Origin: Bugula neritina
Taxonomy: Eukaryota; Animalia; Bryozoa
Direction of reading: 5' to 3'
NCBI GenBank assembly: GCA_964035545.1
Contig: OZ037770.1
Coordinates: 4,310,662-4,374,661, forward strand
DNA length: 64,000 nt
Below, in pieces: positions 1,676 through 50,004 of this stretch; within the stretch, counting starts at the first letter, position 1, and each line of letters starts with the position of its first letter. The notes under the pieces are model-generated. The model was not told the origin of the DNA and searched no databases. It was given only the letters and a program-made list of their open reading frames with translations. A program made the position numbers and the translations under genes.

Positions 1676-1966
<291 letters not shown>

Positions 1967-2123
1967 AATTTTATTAAAGATAGAGTAGTTTTTATTTTTT
2001 AAATAAAAACGATTTTTTTTATATTTTTTTATTAATTTTTTTTTTGGAAAAATATTTTTGAAAACTTTTTTTATTTTTAAAAAGAAAAATATTTTTTTAA
2101 AAGAAAAGCGTTAAAACGAATAT

Positions 2124-3020
2124 TTAAACGTTATAACTTGAAAATACTGGTAGAGATTCACTAGATTCTACTATATCTCCATCACTCGTTGATAATACTA
2201 ATTTATTACCCGTTGCCCCCTGTAATTTAGGAATAGCGTGATTATTTATATTATTTATTGTAATAATATCGGTAATATTTATATCGGTTTCTACGATATT
2301 ACCATTACTCGAAAGCATTAATAATTTATTTCCAATTGACGGTTGTATTTTATTCATAGCAAAATTATTTATATTACTAGTCGTAACAACATCGCTAACG
2401 CTTAAGCTACTATCTACGATATTACCCGAAGTAGTTGAAACGGTTAATTTTTCATTCGCGGGTTGTATTTTATTTATAGCGAAATTATTTATATTATTAG
2501 TCGTAATGACATCGCTAACGCTTAAATTACTATCAATAATATTACCCGTATTAGTTGATACGGTTAATTTTTCAGTTGGGTCTCGTATAAGAGGTACGGC
2601 GTAATTAGATACATTAGTTTTTGTAACGACATCATTAACTTTTAAATTACTATCTATAACGCGTCCATCATCAGTTGATATAGTTAATTGGTTAATAGGG
2701 TTTTGTATAAGAGGTACTGCGTAATTAAATACATTAGTTTTTGTAACAACATTATCAACTTTTAAATTACTATCTATAACGCGTCCATCATCAGTTGATA
2801 TAGTTAACTGATTAATAGGGTTTTGTATTTTAGGCATACTCGTATCATCAACGTATTTTTTTGTAGCCGCGTCTTGATTGTCAGCCGGATCAATGACTCT
2901 AGATATTTTATTTTCTCCCATATCTAGCGTACCCGTAAGAGTACTACTACCGTTTATTAAAACGAATTTTTTCGTATTTATTTCCGTTTTTCCACTTCCT
3001 CCGAATTTATAAACACTCAT
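2124..3020 (-). CDS. Putative fibre/spike-like repeat protein (298 aa)
   Basis: LDMGENKISRVIDP..QDAATKKYVD motif typical of trimeric fibre/adhesin necks, followed by about six ~40-aa repeats (IQNPINQLTISTDDGRVIDSNLKV...). Confidence 0.6.
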   Translation of the reverse strand: MSVYKFGGSGKTEINTKKFVLINGSSTLTGTLDMGENKISRVIDPADNQDAATKKYVDDTSMPKIQNPINQLTISTDDGRVIDSNLKVDNVVTKTNVFNYAVPLIQNPINQLTISTDDGRVIDSNLKVNDVVTKTNVSNYAVPLIRDPTEKLTVSTNTGNIIDSNLSVSDVITTNNINNFAINKIQPANEKLTVSTTSGNIVDSSLSVSDVVTTSNINNFAMNKIQPSIGNKLLMLSSNGNIVETDINITDIITINNINNHAIPKLQGATGNKLVLSTSDGDIVESSESLPVFSSYNV

Positions 3021-3023
3021 TTA

Positions 3024-3782
3024 TTAAGGTATATAAAATTCGTCTAAGCTATGCCTATACCTTCCATTATTTTTTGAGGAAGAAAGATCTAAAGTAATAA
3101 AGCCGTGAGGTTTTTGCCATCCTTTATAACAAAAGTTTTTAAATTCGTTTAATGTTAAATCTCCGTTTATGTGATCTTGATATATATGATTTAAATTTTT
3201 TCCGTCTTGAGGAAATAAGCAAATAAAATTAGCGTTTTCTCGAATTGTGTTTCTAGGCAGCTTAAAATAATTTTGCGACAAATAAAAGCAATCGACGTTA
3301 TTGTGTCGTCCTCTTACGTAATAACTTTCGCAAGTTTTTTGTTTTTCCAACATTAAATCATCGAATATTATTAAATTTTTATTATTAGCGTCTAATTCGC
3401 TAGGGTCATAAACGTCGTTACTAGATTCTATAAATTCGGCGTCTATATTACCGTTACCCTTACTATTTTTTAAAACACGAGTTACATTTATACCCGAATT
3501 TATTATCGCGTCACTATTTTTAAAAAAATTTAAAATTTCTTCTTTAGTTAATTTACGTTCGAAAGCCTTCCTCATATTTATATATTCGGGTTGAGAAAGA
3601 CTTTTACCGTAAATCATAAGTTTATCGTAATCGAGCCAATTAGGTTGTAATAATAAATTACAAAGTAACGTAGTTTTACCGCATCCAGATTTTCCAACGA
3701 TAAGACCTCTTATGCTTTTAGGAAGTAAAGGATTATTATTACGATTAATTTCGTTTTTCCACGAAAGATTTTCTATTTCCAT
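3024..3782 (-). CDS. A32/FtsK-like genome-packaging ATPase
   Basis: Walker A GKSGCGKT, Walker B LIIFDD, RGRHNN and LSQNYF motifs. Confidence 0.93.
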   Translation of the reverse strand: MEIENLSWKNEINRNNNPLLPKSIRGLIVGKSGCGKTTLLCNLLLQPNWLDYDKLMIYGKSLSQPEYINMRKAFERKLTKEEILNFFKNSDAIINSGINVTRVLKNSKGNGNIDAEFIESSNDVYDPSELDANNKNLIIFDDLMLEKQKTCESYYVRGRHNNVDCFYLSQNYFKLPRNTIRENANFICLFPQDGKNLNHIYQDHINGDLTLNEFKNFCYKGWQKPHGFITLDLSSSKNNGRYRHSLDEFYIP

Positions 3783-3794
3783 TTATTATAATAA

Positions 3795-5159
3795 ATGTAT
3801 TGTTGTAAGTGTAAAACTAAAACGAAAACTCTTAATTACAAAAAGAGAGTAAGTAAAAATAATAGACTAATGGGTTACGGTAATTGCGGTCAATGCGGAT
3901 GTAAAAAGACTACATTCGTTGGGTCGGGTTTAGCTAATAATTTAATAAATAATTTACCCTTTGAATTGCATTATCCCGGTCATAATTTTTTAGGACCTGG
4001 TACTAAATTAAATAAGCGTCTTAATGACGACATGACTCCTAAAGAATGGAGTAAACCGGTAGATCGAGACGACGCTATAGCCATGAGACACGACGTGTGT
4101 TACGCGCTTAATAAAGATACTAAGACTAGAAACGAAATATGCGATAAAAATATGTTAGACGAACTGAAAGCTATACCTAATCCTACGCCCGCCGAACAGC
4201 GACACAGTCGTTTTGCTTCGGCAATAATAGGAGCGAAAAAGCGCTTAGGATGGGGATGGACGAACGAGTTAGCCGAAGAATTACATAAACCCGTACAAAA
4301 AAAATTTCGTAAAAGACGAGTTTGGGTATCGGGTATTGATAATATTTGGGCGGCTGACTTGGTTGATATGACTGAATTTGCTAAATTTAATAACGGTTAT
4401 AAATATTTATTAACGGTAATAGACGTGTTTTCAAAATACGGTTGGATAATACCTTTAAAAAATAAAACCGGTAAAGCGACGGCTTTAGCTTTAAAAATAA
4501 TTTTAACTCGTCGTAAACCTCAACATTTATGGGTTGACAAGGGAAAAGAGTTTTATAATAAAGACGTAAAGTCCTTAATAGACTTATATTCTACGGAAAA
4601 TGAAGAAAAGTCTAGCGTAGTAGAGAGGTGGAATAGAACAATGAAAGAGCGAATGTTTAAATATTTTTCGGCAAATAATACTTATAAATATATAGACGTA
4701 TTAAAAGATTTAGTAAAACAATATAACGAGACTAAACATTCGTCTATTGGAATGACACCAATTGAAGCTAGTGATCCTTCTAATGAAAATAAAGTACGCG
4801 TGAAATTATATCCAAACTTACCCACGCTTTCTAAACCTAAATTCGCTATAGGCGATAGAGTGCGTATACCTCGTAAGAAACGAACGTTTGAAAAAGGTTA
4901 TACAGTTAGATGGACGGAGGAGGTGTTTACTATAAGTAAAATATTATATACTAATCCAACTACTTATAAATTAACCGACTCGGGAGGAGAAGAAATTCAA
5001 GGATCTTTTTACGAACGGGAATTACAAAAGACGAAGCAAGAAATGTATAGAATAGAGCGCGTAATTAAAAAGAAAGGTAAAAAGGCTTTAGTAAAATGGT
5101 TGGGTTATTCCGATTCTCAAAACTCTTGGGTAAATTTAAACGTTTTAGAACGATTATAG
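3795..5159 (+). CDS. Retroviral-type (rve) integrase with N-terminal Zn ribbon and parvovirus-type phospholipase A2, and C-terminal chromodomain
   Basis: CCKC/CGQC; PGHNFLGPGT...DAIAMRHDVCY (PLA2); WAADLVD, WVDKGKEF, SVVERWNRT (DDE triad); YRIERVI...LVKWLGYSDSQNSWV (chromodomain). Confidence 0.93.
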   Translation: MYCCKCKTKTKTLNYKKRVSKNNRLMGYGNCGQCGCKKTTFVGSGLANNLINNLPFELHYPGHNFLGPGTKLNKRLNDDMTPKEWSKPVDRDDAIAMRHDVCYALNKDTKTRNEICDKNMLDELKAIPNPTPAEQRHSRFASAIIGAKKRLGWGWTNELAEELHKPVQKKFRKRRVWVSGIDNIWAADLVDMTEFAKFNNGYKYLLTVIDVFSKYGWIIPLKNKTGKATALALKIILTRRKPQHLWVDKGKEFYNKDVKSLIDLYSTENEEKSSVVERWNRTMKERMFKYFSANNTYKYIDVLKDLVKQYNETKHSSIGMTPIEASDPSNENKVRVKLYPNLPTLSKPKFAIGDRVRIPRKKRTFEKGYTVRWTEEVFTISKILYTNPTTYKLTDSGGEEIQGSFYERELQKTKQEMYRIERVIKKKGKKALVKWLGYSDSQNSWVNLNVLERL

Positions 5160-5160
5160 T

Positions 5161-5319
5161 GGACACAAATGTAGACACAAATGTGGATACTAGACACAAA
5201 TGTGGACACAAATGTAGATACTAGACACAAAAGTGGACACAAATGTGGACACTAGACACAAAAGTGGACACAAAAGTGGACACAAATGTAGACACTAGAC
5301 ACAAAAGTGGACACAAATT
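5161..5319 (+). repeat. Intergenic tandem array of RGACACAAAWGT 12-mers punctuated by RGAYACT 7-mers (~31-bp higher-order unit)
   Basis: Read directly from the sequence between the integrase stop and the next ORF. Confidence 0.9.
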
Positions 5320-5332
5320 TATGTTTATATAA

Positions 5333-6145
5333 ATGAGTTACTTAAAGATTCACGACCCTATAAAAAGAGATAAAACCGTACAAGATTTTATTTCTCAAAA
5401 GAATAAATTAAAAGAAAATTTTAAACGAGAACGCGAGCAAGAATTAAATGCCGCAATGGCTCAAGAAAAATATTTTGAACTCGTAATTGCTTCTCAAGCT
5501 CAAACGACTGACGCGTTAAAACAATTGCTTACATTACCCAATTATAATGTTCAACCGGCTATAACGGATGGAGTTATAAATTTAGACGAATTTACACAAA
5601 ACGCTTTAGCTGGCTTAGAACTCGGCGCTTATAACGTAAAGTGGGATGGTAATAGACACGTTATTGGTACAAAACCTATAAGCTTTAACGATGGTAAAAT
5701 AATTTTTGATAACGAAGAATATCCGGCGACTAGAGGACTTTTAAGTCTTTTAACGCGTAAAACGCCTATAGGATACGATGATAATGATTTAGCGAATTAC
5801 GCTAATATACTCGATAATAGCGGCGCTATATATCAAAGTAAACACGGTCCTATAGATAAAAATAGTGACAAGTGGAGACGTATTGTTAGACCTATTTGGG
5901 AACAATTATATCCTCAGAGAGCGAAACTCGCCGATAGTAAAAAAGCTAAAAGACAAGTCGGTGATGGAGTAGTATATTTATCGTCTGATCCTAACGCTTT
6001 AGTAGAACGACTCGAACTTTTAATTTCTAGCGCTAAAGCCGGAAATACGGGAGTACGAAATGAAATTGTGTTTATATTAGACGAATTACTTAGAATGAAA
6101 ATTATTACTCGTAACGAATATAAAAACATTCTTTTATATTTATAA
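5333..6145 (+). CDS. Conserved Polinton core/structural protein (270 aa)
   Basis: N-terminal coiled coil; C-terminal DPNALVERLELL..AGN...NEI..ILDEL motif that I recognise from animal Polinton proteins. Confidence 0.7.
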   Translation: MSYLKIHDPIKRDKTVQDFISQKNKLKENFKREREQELNAAMAQEKYFELVIASQAQTTDALKQLLTLPNYNVQPAITDGVINLDEFTQNALAGLELGAYNVKWDGNRHVIGTKPISFNDGKIIFDNEEYPATRGLLSLLTRKTPIGYDDNDLANYANILDNSGAIYQSKHGPIDKNSDKWRRIVRPIWEQLYPQRAKLADSKKAKRQVGDGVVYLSSDPNALVERLELLISSAKAGNTGVRNEIVFILDELLRMKIITRNEYKNILLYL

Positions 6146-6148
6146 TAA

Positions 6149-6466
6149 ATGTACGTTTATGATAAAAGACAACGATTACAAAGACACTACGCCGGTGGTG
6201 GAATATTCGATACCATTAGGAATGTAGTAACTAAAATAGCTAGTAATTCCAGCGTAAGAGAATTAGGTAAAAAGGCTATAGCTAAAGTGGGTACCGCGGC
6301 TGGTGAAAAAATTGTTAACGCGATTAAAAAAAGAAGGCAAAAAAAGTTAAAAAAAAGAAGCTTGAATGCTAAAAGTCAAGCTATATTACAAAAACTTAAT
6401 TTAGCTAAAGATGATAGTAATATAAGCAATATTTTAGAAGGAAGCGGACAAGCTATAGCTTATTAA
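6149..6466 (+). CDS. Small basic virion core protein with amphipathic helix (105 aa)
   Basis: GGG followed by amphipathic IFDTIRNVVTKIAS, Lys/Arg-rich tract, immediately upstream of the MCP. Confidence 0.6.
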   Translation: MYVYDKRQRLQRHYAGGGIFDTIRNVVTKIASNSSVRELGKKAIAKVGTAAGEKIVNAIKKRRQKKLKKRSLNAKSQAILQKLNLAKDDSNISNILEGSGQAIAY

Positions 6467-6487
6467 GAAATTATTTTACTATAATAA

Positions 6488-7762
6488 ATGGATTCTCTAA
6501 ACATTACACAAAAAATTGTACTCGATACGAGTGTAGAGCGCGATCAAGTACACGAATACGAACCCGTAACGGGAACGAATTTAAATAATCCCGGCGAAAT
6601 TAGAATAGTTATTAATCAGCAAGATTTGTACGTTCAGCCGAGTAAAAGTTATTTAATTATTGAAGGTCGTTTAACTAAAGCCGACGGAACCGCATACGCC
6701 GACGCCGACTTAGTAACGTTAACGAATAACGGTATGGCTTATTTGTTTAAAAGTATTAGATATCAACTCGACGGACACGACTTGGAATATATAAATAATC
6801 CCGGACACGCTTCGACCATGATGGGTTTACTAACTTACCCCGACGACTACGGCAAGTCGAGAGGTCTTAACCAGTTGTGGTCAAAAGATACTACCGCAGC
6901 CGCTGCCGCCGCTAATTTAGGTTTTAACGCGCGTCAAATTTATATTATACAAAAGCCTGACCCTAAAGGTACTTTTAGTATTAAAGTGGATCTTAGACAT
7001 TTGTTTGGGTTCGCCGATGACTATGAAAAAGTTTTATATGGTATAAAACATCAATTAACGCTAGTACGCGATACTAATGATAATGCCATATTTAGAGCTA
7101 ATGGCGTTGACGCCGGTAAAATAACGTTAGATAAAGTATCGTGGTGGATGCCTCACATAACACCCGACTTCGAAATGAAACATAAGCTTTATAAAATTAT
7201 AGAGAGTAAAACGCAGCTTCCCATAATTTATAGGTCTAGGTGGTGTGATAGTATCGCGGTGCCGCAAACTACTAATTTTACGTGGCGTTTGGGTTCTAGA
7301 GGAGATACCGAAAAACCTAAATATATTATTATAGGTTTTCAAACGGGTAAGAATGAAAGTCAAACGACTAATCCGGCCGTATTCGATCACGTTAACGTTA
7401 AAAGTATATACGCGATGTTAAATAGCGAGCGGTATCCCGAAGTTGATTACGATATAGATTTTGCTAAAATGAAGTTTAGTAGAGTGTACGGAGACGCTTC
7501 TAAATTTTGTGGAGAATATTACGGTATAAACGAGCTAATCGCTTATTCAAACGTATTACCTTCGGAATATAAAGATCTTTACGCTTTGTTCGTAATAGAC
7601 GTTAGTAAGCAAAGCGAGGCTCTTAAAAGTAGCGTAGCCGATATTCAATTAAGAGTTCAGTTTAGTCAAAATGTACCGGCTAATACTCAAGCGTACGCAT
7701 TAATTCTATCGGATAAAACTATGTCTCTTAGTTCTGATGGAAATAATTTAAAAGTTATATAA
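6488..7762 (+). CDS. Major capsid protein (double jelly-roll, hexon-like)
   Basis: 424 aa, beta-rich; EYEPV..NLN..GEIRI, PSKSYLIIEG, EKPKYIIIGFQ, LNSERYP and LFVIDVSKQ motifs; position in the Polinton. Confidence 0.9.
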   Translation: MDSLNITQKIVLDTSVERDQVHEYEPVTGTNLNNPGEIRIVINQQDLYVQPSKSYLIIEGRLTKADGTAYADADLVTLTNNGMAYLFKSIRYQLDGHDLEYINNPGHASTMMGLLTYPDDYGKSRGLNQLWSKDTTAAAAAANLGFNARQIYIIQKPDPKGTFSIKVDLRHLFGFADDYEKVLYGIKHQLTLVRDTNDNAIFRANGVDAGKITLDKVSWWMPHITPDFEMKHKLYKIIESKTQLPIIYRSRWCDSIAVPQTTNFTWRLGSRGDTEKPKYIIIGFQTGKNESQTTNPAVFDHVNVKSIYAMLNSERYPEVDYDIDFAKMKFSRVYGDASKFCGEYYGINELIAYSNVLPSEYKDLYALFVIDVSKQSEALKSSVADIQLRVQFSQNVPANTQAYALILSDKTMSLSSDGNNLKVI

Positions 7763-8521
7763 ATGGATAATAGAATTTTAAGAGAAATTGCTGATAATAC
7801 GGCCTCTAAACAAACAATGACTATAGGAGTTACCGATACTAAAACGAGAATAATTACTCAACTTAATCCGCCTATAGAATTAAATAAAAATAAAAAATAT
7901 GAAATGTGTCTTATTAGTTTGGATACGTTTTATTCTTTTCCAAACATTAGTACTGATAGAAATTCCTATAGATGGTCTAAAGACGGTGGTACTACGTGGT
8001 ATTCAGTTTCGCTACCAATTGGAGTGTATGAATTAGATCAACTAGAAGAAGCTATTCAAGACGAAATAGTAAAAGAGGGGGGTAATAGAAACGGTATTAC
8101 TTTGCAAGCTAATAAAGTAACTTTTAGAATTATACTTAAATTAAAACCAAATTATCAAATAGATTTTAACGTTGAAAATTCTCTAAGAGACGTTTTAGGT
8201 TTTGACGCGGCGATATATAATCAACCTTATATCGAAGCTATAAACATAGTAAATATTTTAAATATAAACGCTATACACGTACAAGTTGATTGTATTAATG
8301 GAAGTTATATCGATGGTACTTATAAACCCGTTATTTATTCATTTTTTCCGAGCGTTAGTCCGGGATATAAAATAATAGAAAAACCTCATAATTTAATATA
8401 CTTACCCGTTCACGTTAAATATATTAAGACGTTAACCGTTACGGTAACCGATCAAAAAGGTAATTTATTAGATCTTAGCGGTGAACAACTTTCAATAAGA
8501 TTTCATTTAAGAGAAGTTTAA
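7763..8521 (+). CDS. Minor capsid protein (penton-like, single jelly-roll)
   Basis: LNPPIEL, LPIGVYEL, I.VDCINGSY, PGYKIIEKP.NLIYLPV and TDQKGNLLDLSGE...IRFHLR motifs. Confidence 0.88.
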   Translation: MDNRILREIADNTASKQTMTIGVTDTKTRIITQLNPPIELNKNKKYEMCLISLDTFYSFPNISTDRNSYRWSKDGGTTWYSVSLPIGVYELDQLEEAIQDEIVKEGGNRNGITLQANKVTFRIILKLKPNYQIDFNVENSLRDVLGFDAAIYNQPYIEAINIVNILNINAIHVQVDCINGSYIDGTYKPVIYSFFPSVSPGYKIIEKPHNLIYLPVHVKYIKTLTVTVTDQKGNLLDLSGEQLSIRFHLREV

Positions 8522-8533
8522 CGTATTATATAA

Positions 8534-9103
8534 ATGGGTTATTGCGAAATTATAGGAAATGTGCCACAGGCGCAAAAACAAAAAATAATGAACGCTTATA
8601 GAAGCGGTAAGGGTTGCGTTATTAAATTGCCTCTCGAAAGCGGAAATGATAAACTAGTCGTTACGAAAACGCAAAATGATAATATTTTAAAAGCGTTAAA
8701 CGCGAATAAAAAAAATATAACGCTCGAAATGTCTCCGTCATTAGTAAAAACTAACGCGTCAATGAGCGGAGGATTTTTAGGAGCTCTATTAGGTATAGCT
8801 ACGAGAGTAATACCTACGCTATTAAAAACTATTATACCGGGTGTACTTTCAGGAGCTGCTAGCGCCGGAGTTGAAAAAGCTATTAAAGGTAAAGGTCTTT
8901 ATTTGAAAAGAGGCGGATGCGTATGTTCCGTAGAACCTAATTCAAACGGTTCTATTACTTTAAAACCAGTCGCGTCGTCTAATTTAATGAAGGGTAATGG
9001 TTTATATTTAAAACAAGGTTCCGGTTATATAAAAGGCGAAGGTTTAATTTTAGGTCCAAATAGTCCGTTTAAAAACATTCCTCTTTTAGGCATGCTATTA
9101 TAG
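8534..9103 (+). CDS. Virion core precursor with several adenain-type cleavage sites (189 aa)
   Basis: MSGG-FLGALL hydrophobic helix; IKGKG, MKGNG and IKGEG; C-terminal GLILGPNSPFKNIPLLG. Confidence 0.65.
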   Translation: MGYCEIIGNVPQAQKQKIMNAYRSGKGCVIKLPLESGNDKLVVTKTQNDNILKALNANKKNITLEMSPSLVKTNASMSGGFLGALLGIATRVIPTLLKTIIPGVLSGAASAGVEKAIKGKGLYLKRGGCVCSVEPNSNGSITLKPVASSNLMKGNGLYLKQGSGYIKGEGLILGPNSPFKNIPLLGMLL

Positions 9104-9122
9104 TTTAAGAAAACATATATAA

Positions 9123-9515
9123 ATGTCAACAGTAATTACTTATAAAAGCCTCGATGGCACCCCAATTAACGAAACGATATATAAAAACAATGATTGTGAA
9201 AAACGAGTATACGAAGGCGGTAATATTAAAGAAAGAATTATATATAAAAAATTTAATATATTAAACGAAATGACTAATCCGTCTAACGAATGCGGATTAC
9301 TCGAAGAAATTACTTATAATAATAAAAAAGAAATTATTTATAAAGAAAATGACGGAAAATTAAAAATAAAAACTATTTACAAAAGTAAAGAAATAATTCA
9401 AGAACTTAACGTAGGTTTAATGAATTATGCAGCGGCTAGAATACCATTATTCTTTACTAAACTAAAATACGCCGAAGACGAAATAGAAAAAAGACGAAAT
9501 GACGCTTTACATTAA
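9123..9515 (+). CDS. Hypothetical protein (130 aa) with repeated (E/T)IIYK-like beta motifs
   Basis: Open ORF with a TAAATG start like the other Polinton genes; no recognisable family. Confidence 0.6.
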   Translation: MSTVITYKSLDGTPINETIYKNNDCEKRVYEGGNIKERIIYKKFNILNEMTNPSNECGLLEEITYNNKKEIIYKENDGKLKIKTIYKSKEIIQELNVGLMNYAAARIPLFFTKLKYAEDEIEKRRNDALH

Positions 9516-9549
9516 AATAAAATATATTATAGTTAAAGAAAACATATAT

Positions 9550-9629
9550 AAATGTGTGTATAATACGGCACACGTAATTCGCTCTTAGGACCGATTATTA
9601 CGCGCTATTAGCAGCCTATACGGATATTT
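9550..9629 (+). ncRNA. Candidate structured ncRNA, copy A
   Basis: Paralogous to 10401-10478, with compensatory changes in three helices; starts at TAAATG; reading frame is only MCV*. Confidence 0.6.
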
Positions 9630-9673
9630 TTGTATTGAACTCCCTTTTTTAATTAATTGTAAAATGCAATTAA

Positions 9674-10153
9674 TTAACAAACGTTGTTACGAGCGACTAT
9701 TATGTCGCTTTTTTTATTCGATATTACGCTATTAATATCTTTATATTTTTCGGTTATAGCGTCGTACTCTTGTTCGTCTATATGAGCGTCGCTTAAAAAA
9801 TTTGATAACATAGAATTAATTTCTAATTTAGAATTTTTTATAAACGTAAAAACGTCTAAATACATTAATGTAGATTTAATTAATTTAGCGTCTTGAGAAG
9901 AAATAGAAGTAGTAATTACACTCATTATACTTACTATTATAGATAATGGTAACAACGTTTGTTTAGTAACGTTAGCGTTTAATAACGCCGTAATAATGAC
10001 ACCGCATATTAAATTCGTTATACCGCATAATCCCGAAATTATTTTTAACAATTTTGATAACCAATTAAAACGATTAAGTTTTTGCTCGTATTCGTTTTCT
10101 AATTTAATAATTTCATCGTTTAAGAGTTCTAATTTTTCTCGTCGAAAGTCCAT
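9674..10153 (-). CDS. Two-TM-helix membrane protein with coiled coils (159 aa)
   Basis: Two hydrophobic segments (IISGLCGITNLICGVIITALL; LLPLSIIVSIMSVITT); TAAATG start. Confidence 0.7.
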   Translation of the reverse strand: MDFRREKLELLNDEIIKLENEYEQKLNRFNWLSKLLKIISGLCGITNLICGVIITALLNANVTKQTLLPLSIIVSIMSVITTSISSQDAKLIKSTLMYLDVFTFIKNSKLEINSMLSNFLSDAHIDEQEYDAITEKYKDINSVISNKKSDIIVARNNVC

Positions 10154-10195
10154 TTATATAAAAAAATGATTTTTATTATTATATTATTTTATAAT

Positions 10196-10399
10196 ATGGA
10201 TCTTACCGTTGAATTACTCGATAAACTAATCGCGCAATCTAAACAAAAAAAATATTCACCATTACTCGAATATTTATATATGCCGGTAATTAGTAATACG
10301 TCTCTTAAAAATTTAAATCATAGAACAAAAAAACAAATTCCTAATATTAATAGATATTTTTATTTAAAAAGCATTTTAGTTAGAGACAAAGAACTATAA
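10196..10399 (+). CDS. Small hypothetical protein (67 aa; likely start at 10196 rather than 10166)
   Basis: In-frame ATG preceded by TATAAT; the upstream extension is low-complexity. Confidence 0.45.
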   Translation: MDLTVELLDKLIAQSKQKKYSPLLEYLYMPVISNTSLKNLNHRTKKQIPNINRYFYLKSILVRDKEL

Positions 10400-10400
10400 T

Positions 10401-10478
10401 AAATGGCGCGATACGGCACACGCAATCCGCTCTCATGACCGGTTTATTGCGCGCTATTTTAGCAGCCCGCGTTCGTTT
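10401..10478 (+). ncRNA. Candidate structured ncRNA, copy B
   Basis: Same fold as 9550-9629 with covariation; starts at TAAATG; its 11-codon ORF is in a different register from copy A. Confidence 0.6.
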
Positions 10479-10579
10479 CTCAGCGTAATATTTCATTTCA
10501 TTTTTTTAATATTTTTACTTATATATAAATAAGTAATAATATATAAAAAATTGATTACCATTAAGGAAAACAATTAGAA

Positions 10580-13500
10580 ATGGAATATTACGCTGAGAAA
10601 CTTACGATTAAAAGCTTAACAGCGTTAGCAAAAAAGCGTGGAATAAAACGATATTCCCGTTTAAATAAAACCGATTTTATGCGGTTATTAGAAGTCGAAG
10701 ACGAGTTTAAAACCGTTAAAGACTTGAAGCTTATAGCTAAACAAAAAGGGTTAAAACGATATTCTCATTTAAAAAGAGTTGAACTTATTCAACTATTAAT
10801 TAATAACGACGTTACACCCGTATTAAAAAGTGAAGCCGCTAACGGTTGGTTTCAAACTTACGAAATTAAGGGTTTACCTGGATACGATATTAATACGTTT
10901 TGCGAATTAGTAAAACTAAACGTACTAGAGTTATTAAAACCTACTATAAAAGTTAAAATATTTTTATATTGTGAAATAAAAAAGCATAATATAAGTACCG
11001 GAGAAACTATTATAGAAATTATGCCATTTACATCAAACGTTGAAATTATATTAGCTTCTACGAATATTGATGAAGTATATAATGAAATAATTCAACGTAT
11101 AAAAGAAAATTTCGCTTCATTAAACGCTAAAGGAAGTAATTGGATGTTTAATTCCATTATAAAAACGGAAATTAATATTAATAAATATCAGCCTTTTAAC
11201 GGATCATCGTGGATTGATCTTCCGAAAGAAATTAAAACGAAAAAGGCCGTAATAAATCCAAAAAATAAAGACAATAAATGCTTTATGTGGGCCATTTTAA
11301 TGGGAGTTTATCCGGTTAATAAAAATATTGAAAGAATTAATAATTATAAAGAGCACGTTAATAAATTATCGTGGGAAGGAGTAGAATTTCCGGCTACGAA
11401 AGAATCCATCGACGCTTTCGAAAAGGTTAATCCCTCAATAGGAATTAACGTATTTACGTGGGACAATAAAACGATAAATTTATGGAGAAAAACTAGCAGT
11501 CAGAATAAAATTATAAATTTACTTTATATAACTGATGGCGAAAAGAATCATTATACGTATATTAAAAATTTAAATAAATTACTCGGTTCGCAAATAAATA
11601 AACGCGTTAATGCAAAACATATTTGTATAAATTGTATGAATTCGTTTCGATCTAACGAATCATTAAAAAAGCATCAAGATTGGTGCTTAAAAAACGATAG
11701 CGTAACTACGACATTTCCAAAATTAGAAGATAAAATAAAATTTCAATCTAGTCATCATTGTCGTAGTATGAGAGTACCGTTTGTAGTATACGCGGACTTT
11801 GAATGTTTTACAAAACCTATACAAGGCTGTAAACCTAATTTTAAAGAAAGTTATACTAATCAATATCAACAGCACGAACCGTCAGGCTTTGGGTATTATA
11901 TAGTAAGCATTACCGGTGAATCTAATTATAGAACTTACACCAAAGAAGCCGAAGACGAAAATATTGGCGAACAGTTTATAAGGCTATTGGAATTTGACAT
12001 TAAAAATATTTATAAAAAATATAAATTTCCTAAACCAATGAGAATTTCAGCTGACGAGCAAAACTCTTTCGAGTTAGCTAAAATTTGCTATATATGCGAA
12101 GAAAAATTAGGCGATAAAAAAGTAAGAGATCACTGTCACTTAACCGGTAATTATAGAGGAGCCGCGCACAAAGAGTGCAACTTAAATTATAAGATTCCAA
12201 AATTTTATTCAGTATTTATTCATAACTTGTCGGGTTATGACGCCCACTTGTTTATTAAAAACTTGGGCGGTAAAATTTCCTGCATACCCAATACTGAAGA
12301 AAAATATATATCCTTTAGTAAAAAATTAATAGTAGATGAATTTACTATAGACAATAAAAATATTGAAGTTACGCGTGAAATTCGCTTTTTAGACTCATAT
12401 AAGTTTATGAGTTCTAGCTTAGCGAGCTTAGTAGCGAATTTAAAGCGCGACGACTTTAAACACTTAGGTGAATATTATAAGGGAAAACAATTAGACTTAG
12501 TATTAAGAAAAGGAGTATTTCCGTACGACTATTTTAATAATCTAAGCGTATTGGATGAAACGTCTTTACCACCTAAAGAAAAGTTTTATTCAAGCTTAAC
12601 CGAGCAAAATATTTCGGAAGAAGATTATATACACGCTCAAAACGTTTGGAAGGAGTTTAATATGGAAACGTTTAGAGAATACCATAATTTATATTTAAAA
12701 ACCGACGTATTACAGTTAGCGGACGTGTTTGAAAACTTTAGAAATATATGTCTCGAACACTATAAATTGGATCCCGCTTGGTATTATACGGCTCCCGGCT
12801 TGTCGTGGGACGCTATGCTCAAAACTACTGAATTAAAGTTAGACCCAATTACCGACATTAACCAACTACTCTTCTTCGAAAAGGCTATTAGAGGTGGTGT
12901 GAGCGTAATTAGTCATAGACACGCTAAAGCCAATAATAAATACATGAAAAATTATAATCCCAAAGAGCCTAGTAGTTATATCGTATATTTAGACGCTAAT
13001 AACTTATACGGTTGGGCTATGTCTAAAAATTTACCCACGGGTAATTTTAAGTGGCTAACCGAAAAGCAATGTAAAAGTTTGGAAAAAAGTTTAAATTTTC
13101 CGCCTAGCTTTTTAGAAGTAGATTTGGAATATTCTAAAAAATTACACGACTCGCATAAAGATTATCCATTCTGCCCCGAAAGATTAACGATTAATAAAGT
13201 GGAAAAATTAATTCCCAACTTAAATAATAAAAAGAATTATATTATACATTACGAGGCGTTAAAACAATGCCTTATGTATGGCTTAAAATTAACGAAGATT
13301 CATAGAGGTATAACCTTTAATGAATCGAATAAGTTAGAAAAATATATAAAATTAAATACCGAACTAAGAACTTTAGCTCGAAGCGATTTTGAAAAAGATT
13401 TCTTTAAACTAATGAATAATTCCGTGTTTGGTAAAACGATGGAAGATATTCGTAATAGAGTTAACGTTAAGTTGGTTACTAGCGAAAGCGAAGCTAAAAA

Positions 13501-14182
13501 GTTTACTAATCAACCAAACTTTAAAAACTTCACTATATTTTCCAAAAATTTAATAGCCGTTCATATGAACGTAACTAAATTAAAGTTTGATAAACCCGTA
13601 TATTTGGGAGCCGCAATTTTGGATATTAGTAAAATCCTTATATATGACTTTCATTACGAGTATATTAAACATAAATACAATAATAAAGCGCAATTGTTAT
13701 TTACGGATACGGATAGTTTAATGTATCACGTAAAAACAGAAAATTTTTATAAGGATATATTACCAGATATTAAAAATAAATTTGATACTAGTAATTATCC
13801 TAAAAATCATAAATCGGGTATACCAACCGGTAAAAATAAAAAAATAATAGGAAAATTTAAGGATGAAGCCGGTGGCAAACAAATTACGGAGTTTGTAGGC
13901 CTAAGGGCTAAATTGTATTCTTATAAAATGGATAATATAGAAGAGAAAAAATGTAAAGGTATTAATAAAACAACTCGCGATAATCGCATAACGTTTGACG
14001 ATTATAAAGAGTGTTTATTAACGCGACAAGATCAGCTTAGAACAATGAACGTGCTAAGAAGTCATAAGCATACAATGTACGCTGAAACAATAAATAAAGT
14101 GGCGTTATCATCCGAAGACGATAAAAGAATTATATTAGAAGACGGTATAATGACAGTCCCTTACGGTTATATAAATGATTAA
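10580..14182 (+). CDS. Protein-primed family B DNA polymerase (pPolB) with two N-terminal Rho-N/HEH-like repeats and an endonuclease VII-like insert
   Basis: Exonuclease motifs VYADFE, HNLSGYD and YLKTDV; polymerase motifs YLDANNLYG, KLMNNSVFGK and FTDTDS; CYIC...RDHCHLTG..RG..H..CN (EndoVII-like). Confidence 0.96.
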   Translation: MEYYAEKLTIKSLTALAKKRGIKRYSRLNKTDFMRLLEVEDEFKTVKDLKLIAKQKGLKRYSHLKRVELIQLLINNDVTPVLKSEAANGWFQTYEIKGLPGYDINTFCELVKLNVLELLKPTIKVKIFLYCEIKKHNISTGETIIEIMPFTSNVEIILASTNIDEVYNEIIQRIKENFASLNAKGSNWMFNSIIKTEININKYQPFNGSSWIDLPKEIKTKKAVINPKNKDNKCFMWAILMGVYPVNKNIERINNYKEHVNKLSWEGVEFPATKESIDAFEKVNPSIGINVFTWDNKTINLWRKTSSQNKIINLLYITDGEKNHYTYIKNLNKLLGSQINKRVNAKHICINCMNSFRSNESLKKHQDWCLKNDSVTTTFPKLEDKIKFQSSHHCRSMRVPFVVYADFECFTKPIQGCKPNFKESYTNQYQQHEPSGFGYYIVSITGESNYRTYTKEAEDENIGEQFIRLLEFDIKNIYKKYKFPKPMRISADEQNSFELAKICYICEEKLGDKKVRDHCHLTGNYRGAAHKECNLNYKIPKFYSVFIHNLSGYDAHLFIKNLGGKISCIPNTEEKYISFSKKLIVDEFTIDNKNIEVTREIRFLDSYKFMSSSLASLVANLKRDDFKHLGEYYKGKQLDLVLRKGVFPYDYFNNLSVLDETSLPPKEKFYSSLTEQNISEEDYIHAQNVWKEFNMETFREYHNLYLKTDVLQLADVFENFRNICLEHYKLDPAWYYTAPGLSWDAMLKTTELKLDPITDINQLLFFEKAIRGGVSVISHRHAKANNKYMKNYNPKEPSSYIVYLDANNLYGWAMSKNLPTGNFKWLTEKQCKSLEKSLNFPPSFLEVDLEYSKKLHDSHKDYPFCPERLTINKVEKLIPNLNNKKNYIIHYEALKQCLMYGLKLTKIHRGITFNESNKLEKYIKLNTELRTLARSDFEKDFFKLMNNSVFGKTMEDIRNRVNVKLVTSESEAKKFTNQPNFKNFTIFSKNLIAVHMNVTKLKFDKPVYLGAAILDISKILIYDFHYEYIKHKYNNKAQLLFTDTDSLMYHVKTENFYKDILPDIKNKFDTSNYPKNHKSGIPTGKNKKIIGKFKDEAGGKQITEFVGLRAKLYSYKMDNIEEKKCKGINKTTRDNRITFDDYKECLLTRQDQLRTMNVLRSHKHTMYAETINKVALSSEDDKRIILEDGIMTVPYGYIND

Positions 14183-14588
14183 AATAAAAAATATAAAATT
14201 ACAAAATAAAGCTCTCTCAAATATTGAATTAGAGTTCGCGATTAAAAAATTAAAAATACCATTTTTTAGAGGAGTATTTTCAAGAAACGATTTACCCAAT
14301 AAACTACGTAAAAAAGAGTGCGGTATATTAAATTTAGACAATTTAATGGGTAACGGTACTCATTGGGTAGCTTGGTATAAAAATAAAAATAAAAAATATT
14401 ATTTCGATAGTTTTGGATTACATCCTCCGCTAGAAATAATGAAATATTTAAAACCGCCTATATTTTATAACACGGAACGAGTACAAAAATTCGGTACCGT
14501 TATATGCGGACACTTGTGTTTATATTGGCTTAAAGAAATGTCTAAACGCGAGTCGCCTCAATTAATTATAAATAAATTACTTATATAA
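14175..14588 (+). CDS. Adenain-like cysteine maturation protease
   Basis: GTHWVA (His), YFDSFG (Asp), Q...CGHLC (Gln/Cys). Confidence 0.93.
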   Translation: MIKIKNIKLQNKALSNIELEFAIKKLKIPFFRGVFSRNDLPNKLRKKECGILNLDNLMGNGTHWVAWYKNKNKKYYFDSFGLHPPLEIMKYLKPPIFYNTERVQKFGTVICGHLCLYWLKEMSKRESPQLIINKLLI

Positions 14589-15101
14589 ATGACTTCAGTT
14601 TATATTTTTGGAAATTCAGCTAATATAATAAATGAACAACCGTATATTACGAATATTATAATTCCGTCAGAATTTACGTATTATTTAGGAGGATTTACTA
14701 CTACATTAATTAAAGATTTTTTAGTCGATGAACCGATTGAAATAACAGATATATTAGTACAATTTTACGGTGAACAAGCTCATAATACTAAAAAACTTTA
14801 TTGGACTGATAAGCGAATAGGCTTACATATTAGAAATAGTACTGAATTATTTAATCCATCCAATGAAAATACTTTTTATAATATAAGCGGTAATGAACAC
14901 AATCTTCCGTTTAGTGAATTAAACGCTAATAAAATTATTGAAGCTAATAAAAACTTTAAATTAACAATAGCGTTATCAAAAAATTATCCTAGTCATAAAC
15001 CTAGCGACATAATTTTAATCGATACTCCCGCTAGCGAAATAACCGATGCGGCATTACCTTTTCATTACGTATTAGTAAAACTTTATTATAACTATAAATG
15101 A
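14589..15101 (+). CDS. Tandem paralogue 1, unknown beta-rich protein (170 aa)
   Basis: Closely similar to the next two ORFs (QFYG, LYWTDK, YPSHKP, LPFHYVLVKLYYNYK). Confidence 0.75.
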   Translation: MTSVYIFGNSANIINEQPYITNIIIPSEFTYYLGGFTTTLIKDFLVDEPIEITDILVQFYGEQAHNTKKLYWTDKRIGLHIRNSTELFNPSNENTFYNISGNEHNLPFSELNANKIIEANKNFKLTIALSKNYPSHKPSDIILIDTPASEITDAALPFHYVLVKLYYNYK

Positions 15102-15631
15102 ATTCGGTATATATTTTTGGAAATTCAGCTAAGGCTAATATAATAAATGAAAAACCATATATTACGGATATTATAATTCCGTCATATTTTTTACATATTT
15201 ACTTTCCTGACAGATTTGAAGGAATATTAATTAGAGATTTTTTAGTCGATGAACCAATTGAAATAACAAATATATTAATACAATTTTACGGTGAACAAGA
15301 TCATAATACTAAAGAACTTTATTGGACTGATAAACAACTAAGCTTAGAAATTAGAGATAGCGCTAATACATTTAAGCATGGTGCAGTCACTGAAAATATT
15401 TTTTCTTATGATATAAGCGGTGCTGAGCATAATGTTCCGTTTAGCGAAATAAACGCTAATAAAATTATTGAAGCTAATAAAAATTTTACATTATCAATGA
15501 CATTATCAAAAACTTATCCTAGTCATAAACCTAGTAATGTTATTTTAACCGATACTCCCGATAGCGAAATAACCAATGCGGCATTACCTTTTCATTACGT
15601 ATTAGTAAAACTTTATTATAATTATAAATGA
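15098..15631 (+). CDS. Tandem paralogue 2 (177 aa)
   Basis: Same motifs; overlaps both neighbours through ATGA start/stop junctions. Confidence 0.75.
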   Translation: MNSVYIFGNSAKANIINEKPYITDIIIPSYFLHIYFPDRFEGILIRDFLVDEPIEITNILIQFYGEQDHNTKELYWTDKQLSLEIRDSANTFKHGAVTENIFSYDISGAEHNVPFSEINANKIIEANKNFTLSMTLSKTYPSHKPSNVILTDTPDSEITNAALPFHYVLVKLYYNYK

Positions 15632-16206
15632 ATATTTATAAATTTAGTAAAGTCGATATAACGACTAATAAAGCGTTTATTTCAGGTCTTATTAACGCCA
15701 ATAAATTTTATTATTACGAAAATATTAATAGTTTTACAGTAGATTTAATTAACGATTATTTAGTAAATAAACCAATTAAAATAACACACGCATTAATACA
15801 ATTTTATGGTGACCGTTTTACTTGGGCTAAAAAAAGAGTATTATATTGGACCGATAAAAAAATAGGTTTACATATTCGTAATAGCGTAAATCCATTTGAT
15901 GAATCTAAAGAAAATTTATTTTATACTATTAGCGGTGCCGAACATAATGTTCCATATAGTAAAATAAATATTAATAAAACCGTTAACGCTAATAATAATT
16001 TTTCCTTTACAATAGCTCTTTCGAGTGATTATCCAAGTCATAAACCCGATGACGTAATTTTAACCGATACTCCTACTAACGAAATATATACCCAATCATT
16101 ACCTTTTTTTGGGTATATTTTAAACTTTATTATAATAGCATTCATGAATAATCTACTAATAATTATTTTTTTTAAAATAAATAATTTTACACTACTAATA
16201 AAATAA
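15628..16206 (+). CDS. Tandem paralogue 3, with a probable 1-nt deletion near the C-terminus
   Basis: Same motifs; the conserved KLYYN ending lies in another frame near 16122-16136. Confidence 0.7.
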   Translation: MNIYKFSKVDITTNKAFISGLINANKFYYYENINSFTVDLINDYLVNKPIKITHALIQFYGDRFTWAKKRVLYWTDKKIGLHIRNSVNPFDESKENLFYTISGAEHNVPYSKININKTVNANNNFSFTIALSSDYPSHKPDDVILTDTPTNEIYTQSLPFFGYILNFIIIAFMNNLLIIIFFKINNFTLLIK

Positions 16207-16306
16207 TAAAGGGTAAATTACTGTTATAACACTCTTCAAAAAAAGTGAGCCAAAACCATCCACCCTAAAAATATTTTTTTTATTTTTAAAAATAAATATT
16301 TTTCTA

Positions 16307-16467
16307 AATAATATTACACTATTTTTTATAATATTATACTACTTTTTATAATATTACTAATAGAGTAGTAGCAGGTGGATGCGTCCTGGATCGCTCTTCT
16401 GACACTGGCGAGTCAAAGACTCGACGGTGGAAGAAGAGTGAGCCAGGACCATCCACCTGCTACTACT
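16307..16467 (-). repeat. Right TIR of the Polinton
   Basis: Inverted copy of 1806-1966; the inner boundary is approximate. Confidence 0.95.
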
Positions 16468-16531
16468 TATATATATATATAAATAGGTATACGAGAAAGA
16501 TTGTTGATTTATTACTTTATTAGGTAAAGTA

Positions 16532-21169: not shown

Positions 21170-21213
21170 ATGTTTCTCGTATACCTATTTATAGTCAAAT
21201 TGCTAGCTCGTAA

Positions 21214-21284
<71 letters not shown>

Positions 21285-22654
21285 AGCTACAAATGCGACC
21301 AATAATTTCTAACATAGGCACTGCATCATACCAACTTGCGAAATACCTGGCCAAAATGCTAAAACCACTTAGTGAATCTGAAAGTAATATCGAATCAACC
21401 GATAGTTTTCTTACATATATACGGCAACTTTATATTTCAGCAAACCATCAACTGATATCATTTGATGTTGTTTCCCTCTTTACTTCTGTACCACTTGACT
21501 ACACGATTTCAGCAATCATAAATGATATTTATGAGAAACAACGAATCCAAACAACTATACCAAAGAAGAAAATGATAAACTTACTCACCCTTTGTACAAA
21601 ACAAGTTCACTTTACTTTCAACGACATCATTTATACACAGACGGATGGTGTTGCTATGGGATCTCCTCTAGGACCAATAATTGCAAATATATTCATGACA
21701 AAACTAGAACAGAAAGTAATACCAAAGTTGAATTCAATGTCACCTTGGGTGAGATACATAGATGACACATTTGCAACAAAAGACCCTGATTATATTAACA
21801 CAACACTCAACACACTTAATAATTTTCATCCTAACATAAAATTTACTCACGAACTAGAAACCAATAAATCACTTTCTTTTCTAGATGTTACAGTTTTGCG
21901 ACACAATAGCTCAGTGGAAACCACAGTATTCCGCAAACCAACACATAACGATACATATTTACATTGGAACTCTTTCTCACTAAAAACGTGGAAGCTAAGC
22001 ACACTCAAGTCACTAGTATTAAGGGCTAATAAAATCTGTTCTACTCCAGCACTTAAGACCCAAGAACTAAACTATATTCGAAATGTTTTTGAACATAAAA
22101 ATGGTTACCCTAAATATGTAATAGAGAAAACTATTAACAACATTGGTGACGGACTACTCAGTGAAAAAGACAACAGGAAACACATTTTACTTCAGCTGCC
22201 TTATAAAGGAGTAACAGGAGAAAAACTAATCCGCTCCCTCAATAAATTAATTACAGACTCTTTTTCAAATGAACTCAATGCCCGGATTTTATTTAAAGGA
22301 ACCCCCTTAAGTTCACATTTTAATCTCAAAGATAAAACCAATAAAGAACACATTCACAACCTAGTCTACAAAATAACCTGCCCTGAAGCTACCTGTCAAC
22401 AAACATATGTAGGCGAAACCGGACGTCGCCTATCACACAGGATACATGAACACTACCATGACATCAATTCCAAAATTTATCAACACATCTCTACTACTAA
22501 TCATGGAAACATATCAATAGACAATGTAACAGTTTTAAATCATTCATTTAAAGGAATCCACCATCGAAAAGTAGCCGAAGCTCTCTACATTAAACAAATA
22601 AAACCGCAACTCAATAAACAAAATTACTCCATACCACTAAAACTATATCAATAG
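21170..22654 (+). pseudogene. Penelope RT-GIY-YIG ORF with ~1 kb deleted and replaced in frame by (TA)n
   Basis: SFDVVSLFT, GVAMGSPLGP and RYIDD (RT); LVYKITC...YVGETGR...RIHEH (GIY-YIG). Confidence 0.88.

Positions 22655-26613: not shown

Positions 26614-50004
<23,391 letters not shown>

Follow-up and report, generated by a model that had tools for sequence, protein, structure and literature searches.

How the Polintons (Mavericks) of animals are transcribed, and why their virions go unseen, is a standing question, and it is raised in a tractable form by an element in the genome of the bryozoan Bugula neritina. The stretch analysed (the window) comprises 64,000 nucleotides (nt) of contig OZ037770.1 (positions 4,310,662 to 4,374,661, forward strand) and holds at 1806..16467 an intact, adintovirus-like Polinton/Maverick of 14.66 kb with AG...CT ends, situated within a TA microsatellite. 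Since this element has no recognisable RNA polymerase, and since its genes start with two motifs that are likely early and post-replicative promoters of nucleocytoviruses, we consider it fairly probable that it uses a nucleocytovirus transcription programme and would be expressed mainly upon infection by such a helper.

Two classes of gene start

A first-pass annotation of this DNA had reported that 14 of 16 open reading frames (ORFs) begin with TAAATG, the exceptions being the DNA polymerase gene pPolB (10580) and a small ORF at 10196, and indeed all 14 starts as well as both exceptions read as claimed. TAA precedes 14/16 ORF starts as against 12/315 of the other ATGs in the element (Fisher p 6.6e-16) and 6/86 of the AT-matched non-start ATGs, a background comparison that the annotation had itself proposed, and resampling 100,000 times from the 20 nt upstream of each start never gave a TAA count above 8. 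The longer form TATA(A)TAA is likewise found at 11/16 starts and at just 4/315 other ATGs. The sites are partly non-independent, 3782 and 3795 belonging to one palindrome and 15098/15628 as well as 9123/9552 representing duplicated contexts, but collapsing duplicated and stop-abutting sites still leaves 10/12 (p 1.6e-10). In addition, the two structured elements described below were correctly said to begin in the same way, with TATA(A)TAAATG at the ATGs 9552 and 10403.

The annotation had furthermore argued that stop-start coupling explains only some of the sites, and this is borne out by the fact that the TAA is the stop codon of the upstream gene at 7763 and 14589 only. No loss of strictness is seen at 5333, whose distance from the upstream stop is 173 bp, or at 3782, 3795 and 10153, which have no sense gene ending upstream of them. 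The base at -3 is T in 14/16 starts. T is a disfavoured Kozak base at this position, and the motif is therefore poorly explained as a translation signal. The ATGs of the ATPase and integrase genes are moreover only 12 bp apart in a palindromic head-to-head region (3780..3797) that forms a putative bidirectional promoter, and a second possible region of this kind is found at 10151..10168 between 10153 on the minus strand and 10166 on the plus strand, since the small ORF, if started at 10166 rather than 10196, would give the exact same 12-bp arrangement. This spacing leaves no room for the TATA-plus-leader layout of RNA polymerase II (Pol II). Sister copies of the element carry a variant at 10158-10159 that swaps one form of the motif for the other without destroying it. 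Together these observations support the notion that the motif acts as a compact viral initiator rather than through stop-start coupling. Of the features of poxvirus late promoters, TAAAT(G/A) at the start is present in the window, but an upstream T-run 5-7 bp from TAAAT is at most suggested, by a T frequency of 0.5-0.69 at -12, -11, -9 and -8, and related elements have an A-rich core instead.

The pPolB gene is marked differently. An early-type motif, AAAATTGA(TTA), is found on the plus strand at 10547..10557, 25 nt ahead of the ATG of pPolB, and its first 8 nt (10547-10554) are the sole copy of AAAATTGA on either strand of the element. The same sequence is described as the mimivirus early motif and as part of the DNA-polymerase promoter of IIV-6 (invertebrate iridescent virus 6) in passages of PMC5294985, and the 11 nt from 10547 on match that AAAAT-containing IIV-6 promoter. 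The probability of a chance occurrence in the shuffled 100 nt upstream is 0.019 for the 8 nt and 0.0014 for the 11 nt. Among the differences listed between sister copies (40 of 49) none changes AAAATTGA, although indels occur on its flanks, and the sister copies have an A at 10577, which leaves pPolB still without T at -3. The early pattern precedes only pPolB and 10196 in the window. The annotation's assignment of pPolB to a separate expression class is thus supported, with AAAATTGA as its probable mark.

Related Polintons and giant-virus contigs

Relatives were represented by 81 loci fetched with a capsid alignment, in which 273/530 ORFs have homologue-supported starts; homologues of the major capsid protein (MCP), the ATPase and the minor capsid protein (mCP) align from residue 1-5. 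The distinct upstream sequences number 249; TAA is the last triplet in 60 of them and AAA in 69. At 135 starts other than those of pPolB, with seven motif-lacking loci excluded, the G+C content drops at -26..-15 and climbs at -14..-9, and A reaches 0.89 and 0.86 at -2 and -1, a profile that matches the core-spacer-initiator layout given for vaccinia intermediate promoters in passages of PMC12917281. Conservation across homologues, which the annotation had named as a check, is partial: the AT core, the spacer and a T(A)nATG start are kept, whereas the strict hexamer is found in some lineages only. The ATPase/integrase spacer is 23-45 bp in the six loci L005, L009, L030, L042, L081 and L235, the last of which (CBDDTI010000304.1) is a 14.7-kb Polinton contig binned in a bacterial metagenome-assembled genome, probably by contamination.

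The seven motif-lacking loci (L051, L056, L068, L076, L080, L046 and L060), which were chosen by eye, have MCPs of 44-50% identity and abutting, co-oriented genes. They do not form one clade, three changes being needed on a capsid tree of 40 rows. The splice-donor-like word RGTAAG occurs 3 times in five of them where 13.1 are expected (z -3.5), and neither a set of 13 loci bearing the motif (68 vs 71.1 expected) nor the window (8 vs 5.2) is depleted of it, but this result is one of 28 comparisons and TAA-clade copies stand at z -2.0. The contrast hints at two lifestyles, in which the motif-lacking relatives would possibly have a host Pol II, spliced mode of expression. Their co-orientation (25/25 ORFs) is a weak argument to the same effect, because several short motif-bearing loci are single-stranded too. 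Avoidance of AATAAA was also tried as a discriminator and dropped, with 60 occurrences in the window against 45.8 expected, 81 against 98.4 in giant-virus loci and 19 against 17.1 in motif-lacking loci.

A search with the MCP alone returned no relative among viral contigs. When such contigs were scanned for the head-to-head arrangement, 142 loci came up, mostly by chance, with the pattern on two ORF starts in 4, on one in 33 and on none in 105, and just one of them, L082, had TAA at least at half of its other starts. This contig and L226 belong to a nucleocytovirus, with RNA polymerase subunit N present. The capsid proteins of two further bins, G001 and G002, are closest to PDB entries 6ojn/8hif and 7yjl (E 1e-104 to 1e-121), which we take to be Singapore grouper iridovirus and tokyovirus. 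TAAATG starts 26/49 ORFs in G002 (14/22 in the stretches fetched by PolB or MCP), 9/15 in L226, 7/32 in G001 and 9/72 in a further six bins; for G001 and G002 these figures cover part of each bin. The early motif is found before 2/42 TAA starts vs 20/54 other starts in G001, G002 and L226 (p 1.6e-4), and both DNA polymerases of the giant-virus bins belong to the early class. Furthermore, the MCP gene of G002 opens with the same TATAATAAATG as that of the window, and L227 holds a 13-bp head-to-head near-twin of the region at 3780-3797, head-to-head spacers in giant-virus loci ranging from 13 to 67 bp. L082/L226, L227, G001 and G002 thus have a two-class start code of their own, with TAAATG set against AAA(T/C)TGA at about -35 to -45, of which no description was found in the reviews examined.

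Proposed helper transcription and its alternatives

The absence of an RNA polymerase of the element's own, likewise asserted by the annotation, is in agreement with profile searches, which matched no RNA polymerase or transcription-factor family among the 16 ORFs, nor among 12 ORFs in a second search, several ORFs being without any family. The annotation had called the start motif a poxvirus-late-like promoter. It was right in so far as the motif behaves like a compact viral initiator, but nothing about it is specific to poxviruses: the irido/marseille-like contigs fit too, and the late initiator of African swine fever virus (ASFV), where gene starts lie at TA(+1)TA and the AT-rich leader has a median length of 9 nt according to passages of PMC7163114, fits equally well. 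The two motifs are likely better read as an early and a post-replicative promoter of a kind general to nucleocytoviruses. Vaccinia TAAA/TAAAT and ASFV late initiators combine, in the parts of PMC12917281, PMC5294985 and PMC7163114 concerned, an AT core, a spacer and an initiator at the ATG or shortly ahead of it, as here; the element differs in its longer TATA(A)TAA, and AAAATTGA is nearer to IIV-6 and mimivirus than to the poxvirus early consensus.

Under such a programme, infection by the helper would turn on the AAAATTGA promoter and pPolB would be made first. An iridovirus-like helper fits this step, since it goes through its early phase in the nucleus, with virion proteins required, and would so reach an integrated copy: passages of PMC8400408 assign iridovirus early mRNA to host Pol II in the nucleus and late mRNA to the cytoplasm, and IIV-6 promoters are inactive without virion proteins according to a portion of PMC5923455. 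The element would then be copied, by protein priming, into a linear genome, upon which the helper RNA polymerase would open the AT-rich core some 15-26 nt upstream and initiate within TATA(A)TAAA. Initiation 0-8 nt before the ATG would yield one mRNA with a very short leader per gene, possibly A- or AU-slipped, the two members of a pair standing head to head across 12 bp being transcribed likewise, and capsid, ATPase, protease and integrase would finally package and re-integrate the genome. As for the helper itself, an irido/marseille-like virus (Pimascovirales) is our tentative candidate and a pox- or asfar-like virus is rather unlikely, other nucleocytoviruses making up the remainder.

Comparable systems are known from protists, where activation of virophages rests on promoter sharing (passages of PMC8547959 and PMC10328495). 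Mavirus and the endogenous mavirus-like elements of Cafeteria burkhardae with their helper CroV are, in the relevant passages of PMC8547959, alike in having an rve integrase, nuclear integration and no RNA polymerase of their own, and their gene starts also bear, within AT-rich flanks, the late motif of the helper. They differ in their protist host, mimivirus-type helper and TCTA motif, as well as in that dependence is experimental there and inferred from sequence here; a capsid of Polinton type and the joint presence of early and late motifs further set the present element apart. Gezel-14T (PgVV-14T), presented as a helper-dependent polinton-like virus (PLV) in parts of bioRxiv 10.1101/2022.07.28.501842, has, as here, AAAATTGA, an early motif of its helper, ahead of the gene for its DNA polymerase, but it has an algal host and TVpol instead of pPolB, and no late motif is found in it according to the same parts, whereas 14 genes start with TAAATG in the element. 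In animals, Barth et al. report PLVs that accompany entomopoxviruses, that is, Polinton-like hyperparasites of an animal nucleocytovirus, though by the sections of PMC11296320 in question these are highly diverged and come from occlusion bodies, unlike the canonical integrated Polinton described here; in the searchable text of that paper the terms 'promoter', 'motif' and 'transcription' are absent. Barreat and Katzourakis (2021) proposed from host range that vertebrate Mavericks are iridovirus-triggered virophages, which is the same idea with the same candidate family of helpers, and the passages found of PMC8097293 hold no promoter evidence. Adintoviruses with Beta-type PolB share the integrase, a PolB without a PF03175 match, the capsid module and the PLA2 domain (passages of PMC8502044), and a term search of the text available for that paper gave neither 'promoter' nor 'helper', as 'promoter' was also absent from a nematode Polinton preprint. 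Literature searches, with supplements and most subscription papers outside their reach, returned no report of a TAAATG start motif in Polintons. The idea that giant viruses activate animal Mavericks thus dates from 2021, and promoter evidence for it was not found in print.

Several facts weigh against helper transcription. All the evidence consists in the similarity of short AT-rich motifs; convergence of such motifs is possible, and DNA rich in A and T is easily melted. The start counts in the relatives are both blurred and inflated by degraded copies and by the small number of source samples, strict TAAATG is lineage-specific, 7/40 capsid loci are without the signal, and two of the motif-lacking loci are placed, weakly (89/97), beside the window. 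The exact early form AAA[AT]TGA is not enriched before the relatives' pPolB (2/14 vs 5/135, p 0.13); the looser [AT]6TGA is found at -60..-19 before 7/14 pPolB genes and 4/135 other starts, but the significant patterns were picked post hoc and the TGA can be an upstream stop. For the exclusivity of early and late motifs in the window, p 0.008 presupposes that the small ORF really starts at 10196; with a start at 10166 the exclusivity depends on pPolB alone (p 0.07). Enrichment in the giant-virus contigs is partly selected, because these were reached by scanning for the motif itself, and the viruses compared (G001, G002 and L226) are not linked to the host of the element. TAAATG also starts the MCP genes of two bins that are not iridovirus-like, G003 and G005, and many poxvirus genes according to passages of PMC4542343, so that the motif names no virus family. 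Finally, IIV-6 has terminator hairpins with TAATG/CATTA at transcript 3' ends (passages of PMC5923455), and these words occur together in 0/16 gene-end regions of the element, where no fold goes beyond z -2.0.

Among other explanations, an autonomous nuclear virus is the one that survives best, albeit as an unlikely one. Near-leaderless mRNAs would here be initiated, in TATA-less fashion, by host Pol II at the AT-rich core and TATA(A)TAA, perhaps with the aid of an unrecognised factor encoded by the element, or the TATA-like word would belong to a promoter for downstream sequence. TATATAA is after all a canonical TATA box word, integration is nuclear, and a regulator could be among the several ORFs without a family. 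Contigs from sequencing runs that are guessed to be RNA (their status is not on record) moreover span most of the element; such contigs cannot show transcript starts, and those covering multiple genes show no single transcript. However, a TATA box at -8..-1 would place the transcript start past the ATG, whereas the MCP, ATPase and mCP homologues align from their very first residues, and the 12-bp head-to-head ATGs also speak against this reading. RGTAAG is furthermore depleted in the motif-lacking relatives alone, as if only those meet the spliceosome.

Genome compaction is a very unlikely alternative, in which TAA-ATG would reflect stop-start coupling or else serve as an in-frame guard stop, and AATAAA/TATAAA within the motif would act as poly(A) signal for the preceding gene on polycistronic Pol II transcripts. 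Starts 7763 and 14589 do abut an upstream stop, 3020 and 6149 come 3 nt after one, 14175, 15098 and 15628 overlap the end of the upstream gene, and AATAAA lies inside TATAATAAATG. The motif is nonetheless as strict at 3782, 3795, 10153 and 5333 and also heads non-coding elements, the early motif of pPolB is left unexplained, and the most tightly packed co-oriented relatives, L068 and L060, are without the motif. Least probable of all is shared ancestry without present dependence, an inherited promoter grammar now read by host factors or the trace of a lost helper, for although the layout is general across nucleocytoviruses (passages of PMC5294985) and the relatives vary between TAA and A-run forms, some lacking the motif, motifs so short would decay absent selection, the sister variant at 10158-10159 converts between motif forms, and an observed/expected (o/e) CpG ratio of 2.0 vs 0.47 in the host implies little time under host methylation.

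Promoters made for the polymerase of a nucleocytovirus, if that is what they are, should leave the element silent in healthy hosts. Virophage-type parasitism, and possibly defence, would then reach integrated elements of animals, and the iridovirus-trigger hypothesis of 2021 would become directly testable with short promoter fragments. A more speculative extension, which we hold only tentatively, is that a major lineage of canonical animal Polintons consists of virophages of irido/marseille-like nucleocytoviruses, which carry the helper's full early/late code and are turned on via its nuclear early phase, and that a sister group has gone back to host Pol II and spliced polycistronic expression, so that lifestyle and likely helper would be readable from the 30 bases upstream of the ATG. 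The start code would in that case offer a sorting of thousands of Polintons by lifestyle and a prediction of helper family from sequence.

Termini, gene content and surroundings

The terminal inverted repeats of about 160 bp (1806..1965 on the plus and 16308..16467 on the minus strand) have the AG...CT ends of Polintons/Mavericks, and the arms including TA flank (1782-1965 and 16308-16491) are 96% complementary. TATATA stands on either side of the element as a 6-bp target-site duplication would, but the flanks are a TA microsatellite. The CpG o/e of 2.0 in the element and 0.47 in the flanking host DNA may be compared with 0.14-1.6 in the relatives.

On the minus strand, the left part of the element encodes a repeat-containing, presumably fibre-like ORF with a TAAATG start (2124..3020) and the A32-like packaging ATPase (3024..3782; Pox_A32, PF04665, E 1e-8), which starts with TATAATAAATG. 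From the same palindrome and with the same start, the plus strand encodes a DUF5679-PLA2-rve integrase-chromodomain ORF (3795..5159) recognised by domain profile matches, with rve (PF00665) above cut-off. It is followed by a conserved Polinton ORF of no known family with a TATATAAATG start (5333..6145), a small basic ORF that may be core-protein-like (6149..6466) and the MCP (6488..7762; PF21738, double jelly-roll, E 1e-57), the latter two with TATAATAAATG starts; named homologues of the capsid protein are one from a scallop and one from a bryozoan. The PF21738 and PF04665 matches are both above cut-off. A probable minor capsid protein, assigned by position and conservation, takes its TAA from the MCP stop codon (7763..8521), and TATATAAATG starts are again found at a conserved ORF (8534..9103), at an ORF of no known family (9123..9515) and, on the minus strand, at a putative membrane-protein ORF (9674..10153), for which only 5 close matches and no gene common to a giant virus were found. 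The small ORF (10166..10399, start 10166 or 10196) precedes pPolB (10580..14182, plus strand), a 1200-aa ORF with homologues in the relatives. Exonuclease and polymerase motifs were seen by eye in its translation, on which grounds we tentatively take it to be a protein-primed family B polymerase, while searches gave no PolB profile, PF03175 included, and no PDB match. An adenain-like protease (14175..14588) overlaps the pPolB end with its TATATAAATG start, its Peptidase_C5 match (PF00770, E 0.009) being below cut-off. Near the right end lie three tandem paralogous ORFs on the plus strand (14589..16206, starts 14589, 15098 and 15628, each with TAAATG), which have no known family and no homologue in the 81 related loci and could possibly be receptor-binding variants.

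The two structured elements, both on the plus strand, are candidate small RNAs of the Polinton. In the first (9545..9650) the motif is followed by 3 codons only, a GC-richer stem-loop and a T6 run, and in the second (10395..10510) by 11 codons, a paralogous stem-loop and a T7 run; the paralogous parts are of about 80 nt and have compensatory differences in the central stem. In the second element one variable site is listed in 10400-10480 among the sister copies, making it less variable than the adjoining ORF, and a single sister contig has the motif at a structured element without an ATG. Single-sequence folds are no better than shuffles (z -0.5 to -1.8), the Rfam search gave two weak chance-level matches, neither on these elements, and a profile built from the two copies yielded no homologue among the related loci collected up to that stage. 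Between the integrase and the next ORF (5158-5315) there is an array of 12/19-bp repeats containing ACACAAA, and the length of this array differs from copy to copy of the element. The host DNA around the element is AT-rich, CpG-depleted and rich in retroelements, with mobile elements at 21170-22654, 34394-35635 and 40600-61000 that comprise reverse-transcriptase ORFs, probably Penelope-like, and Gypsy-like long terminal repeat remnants.

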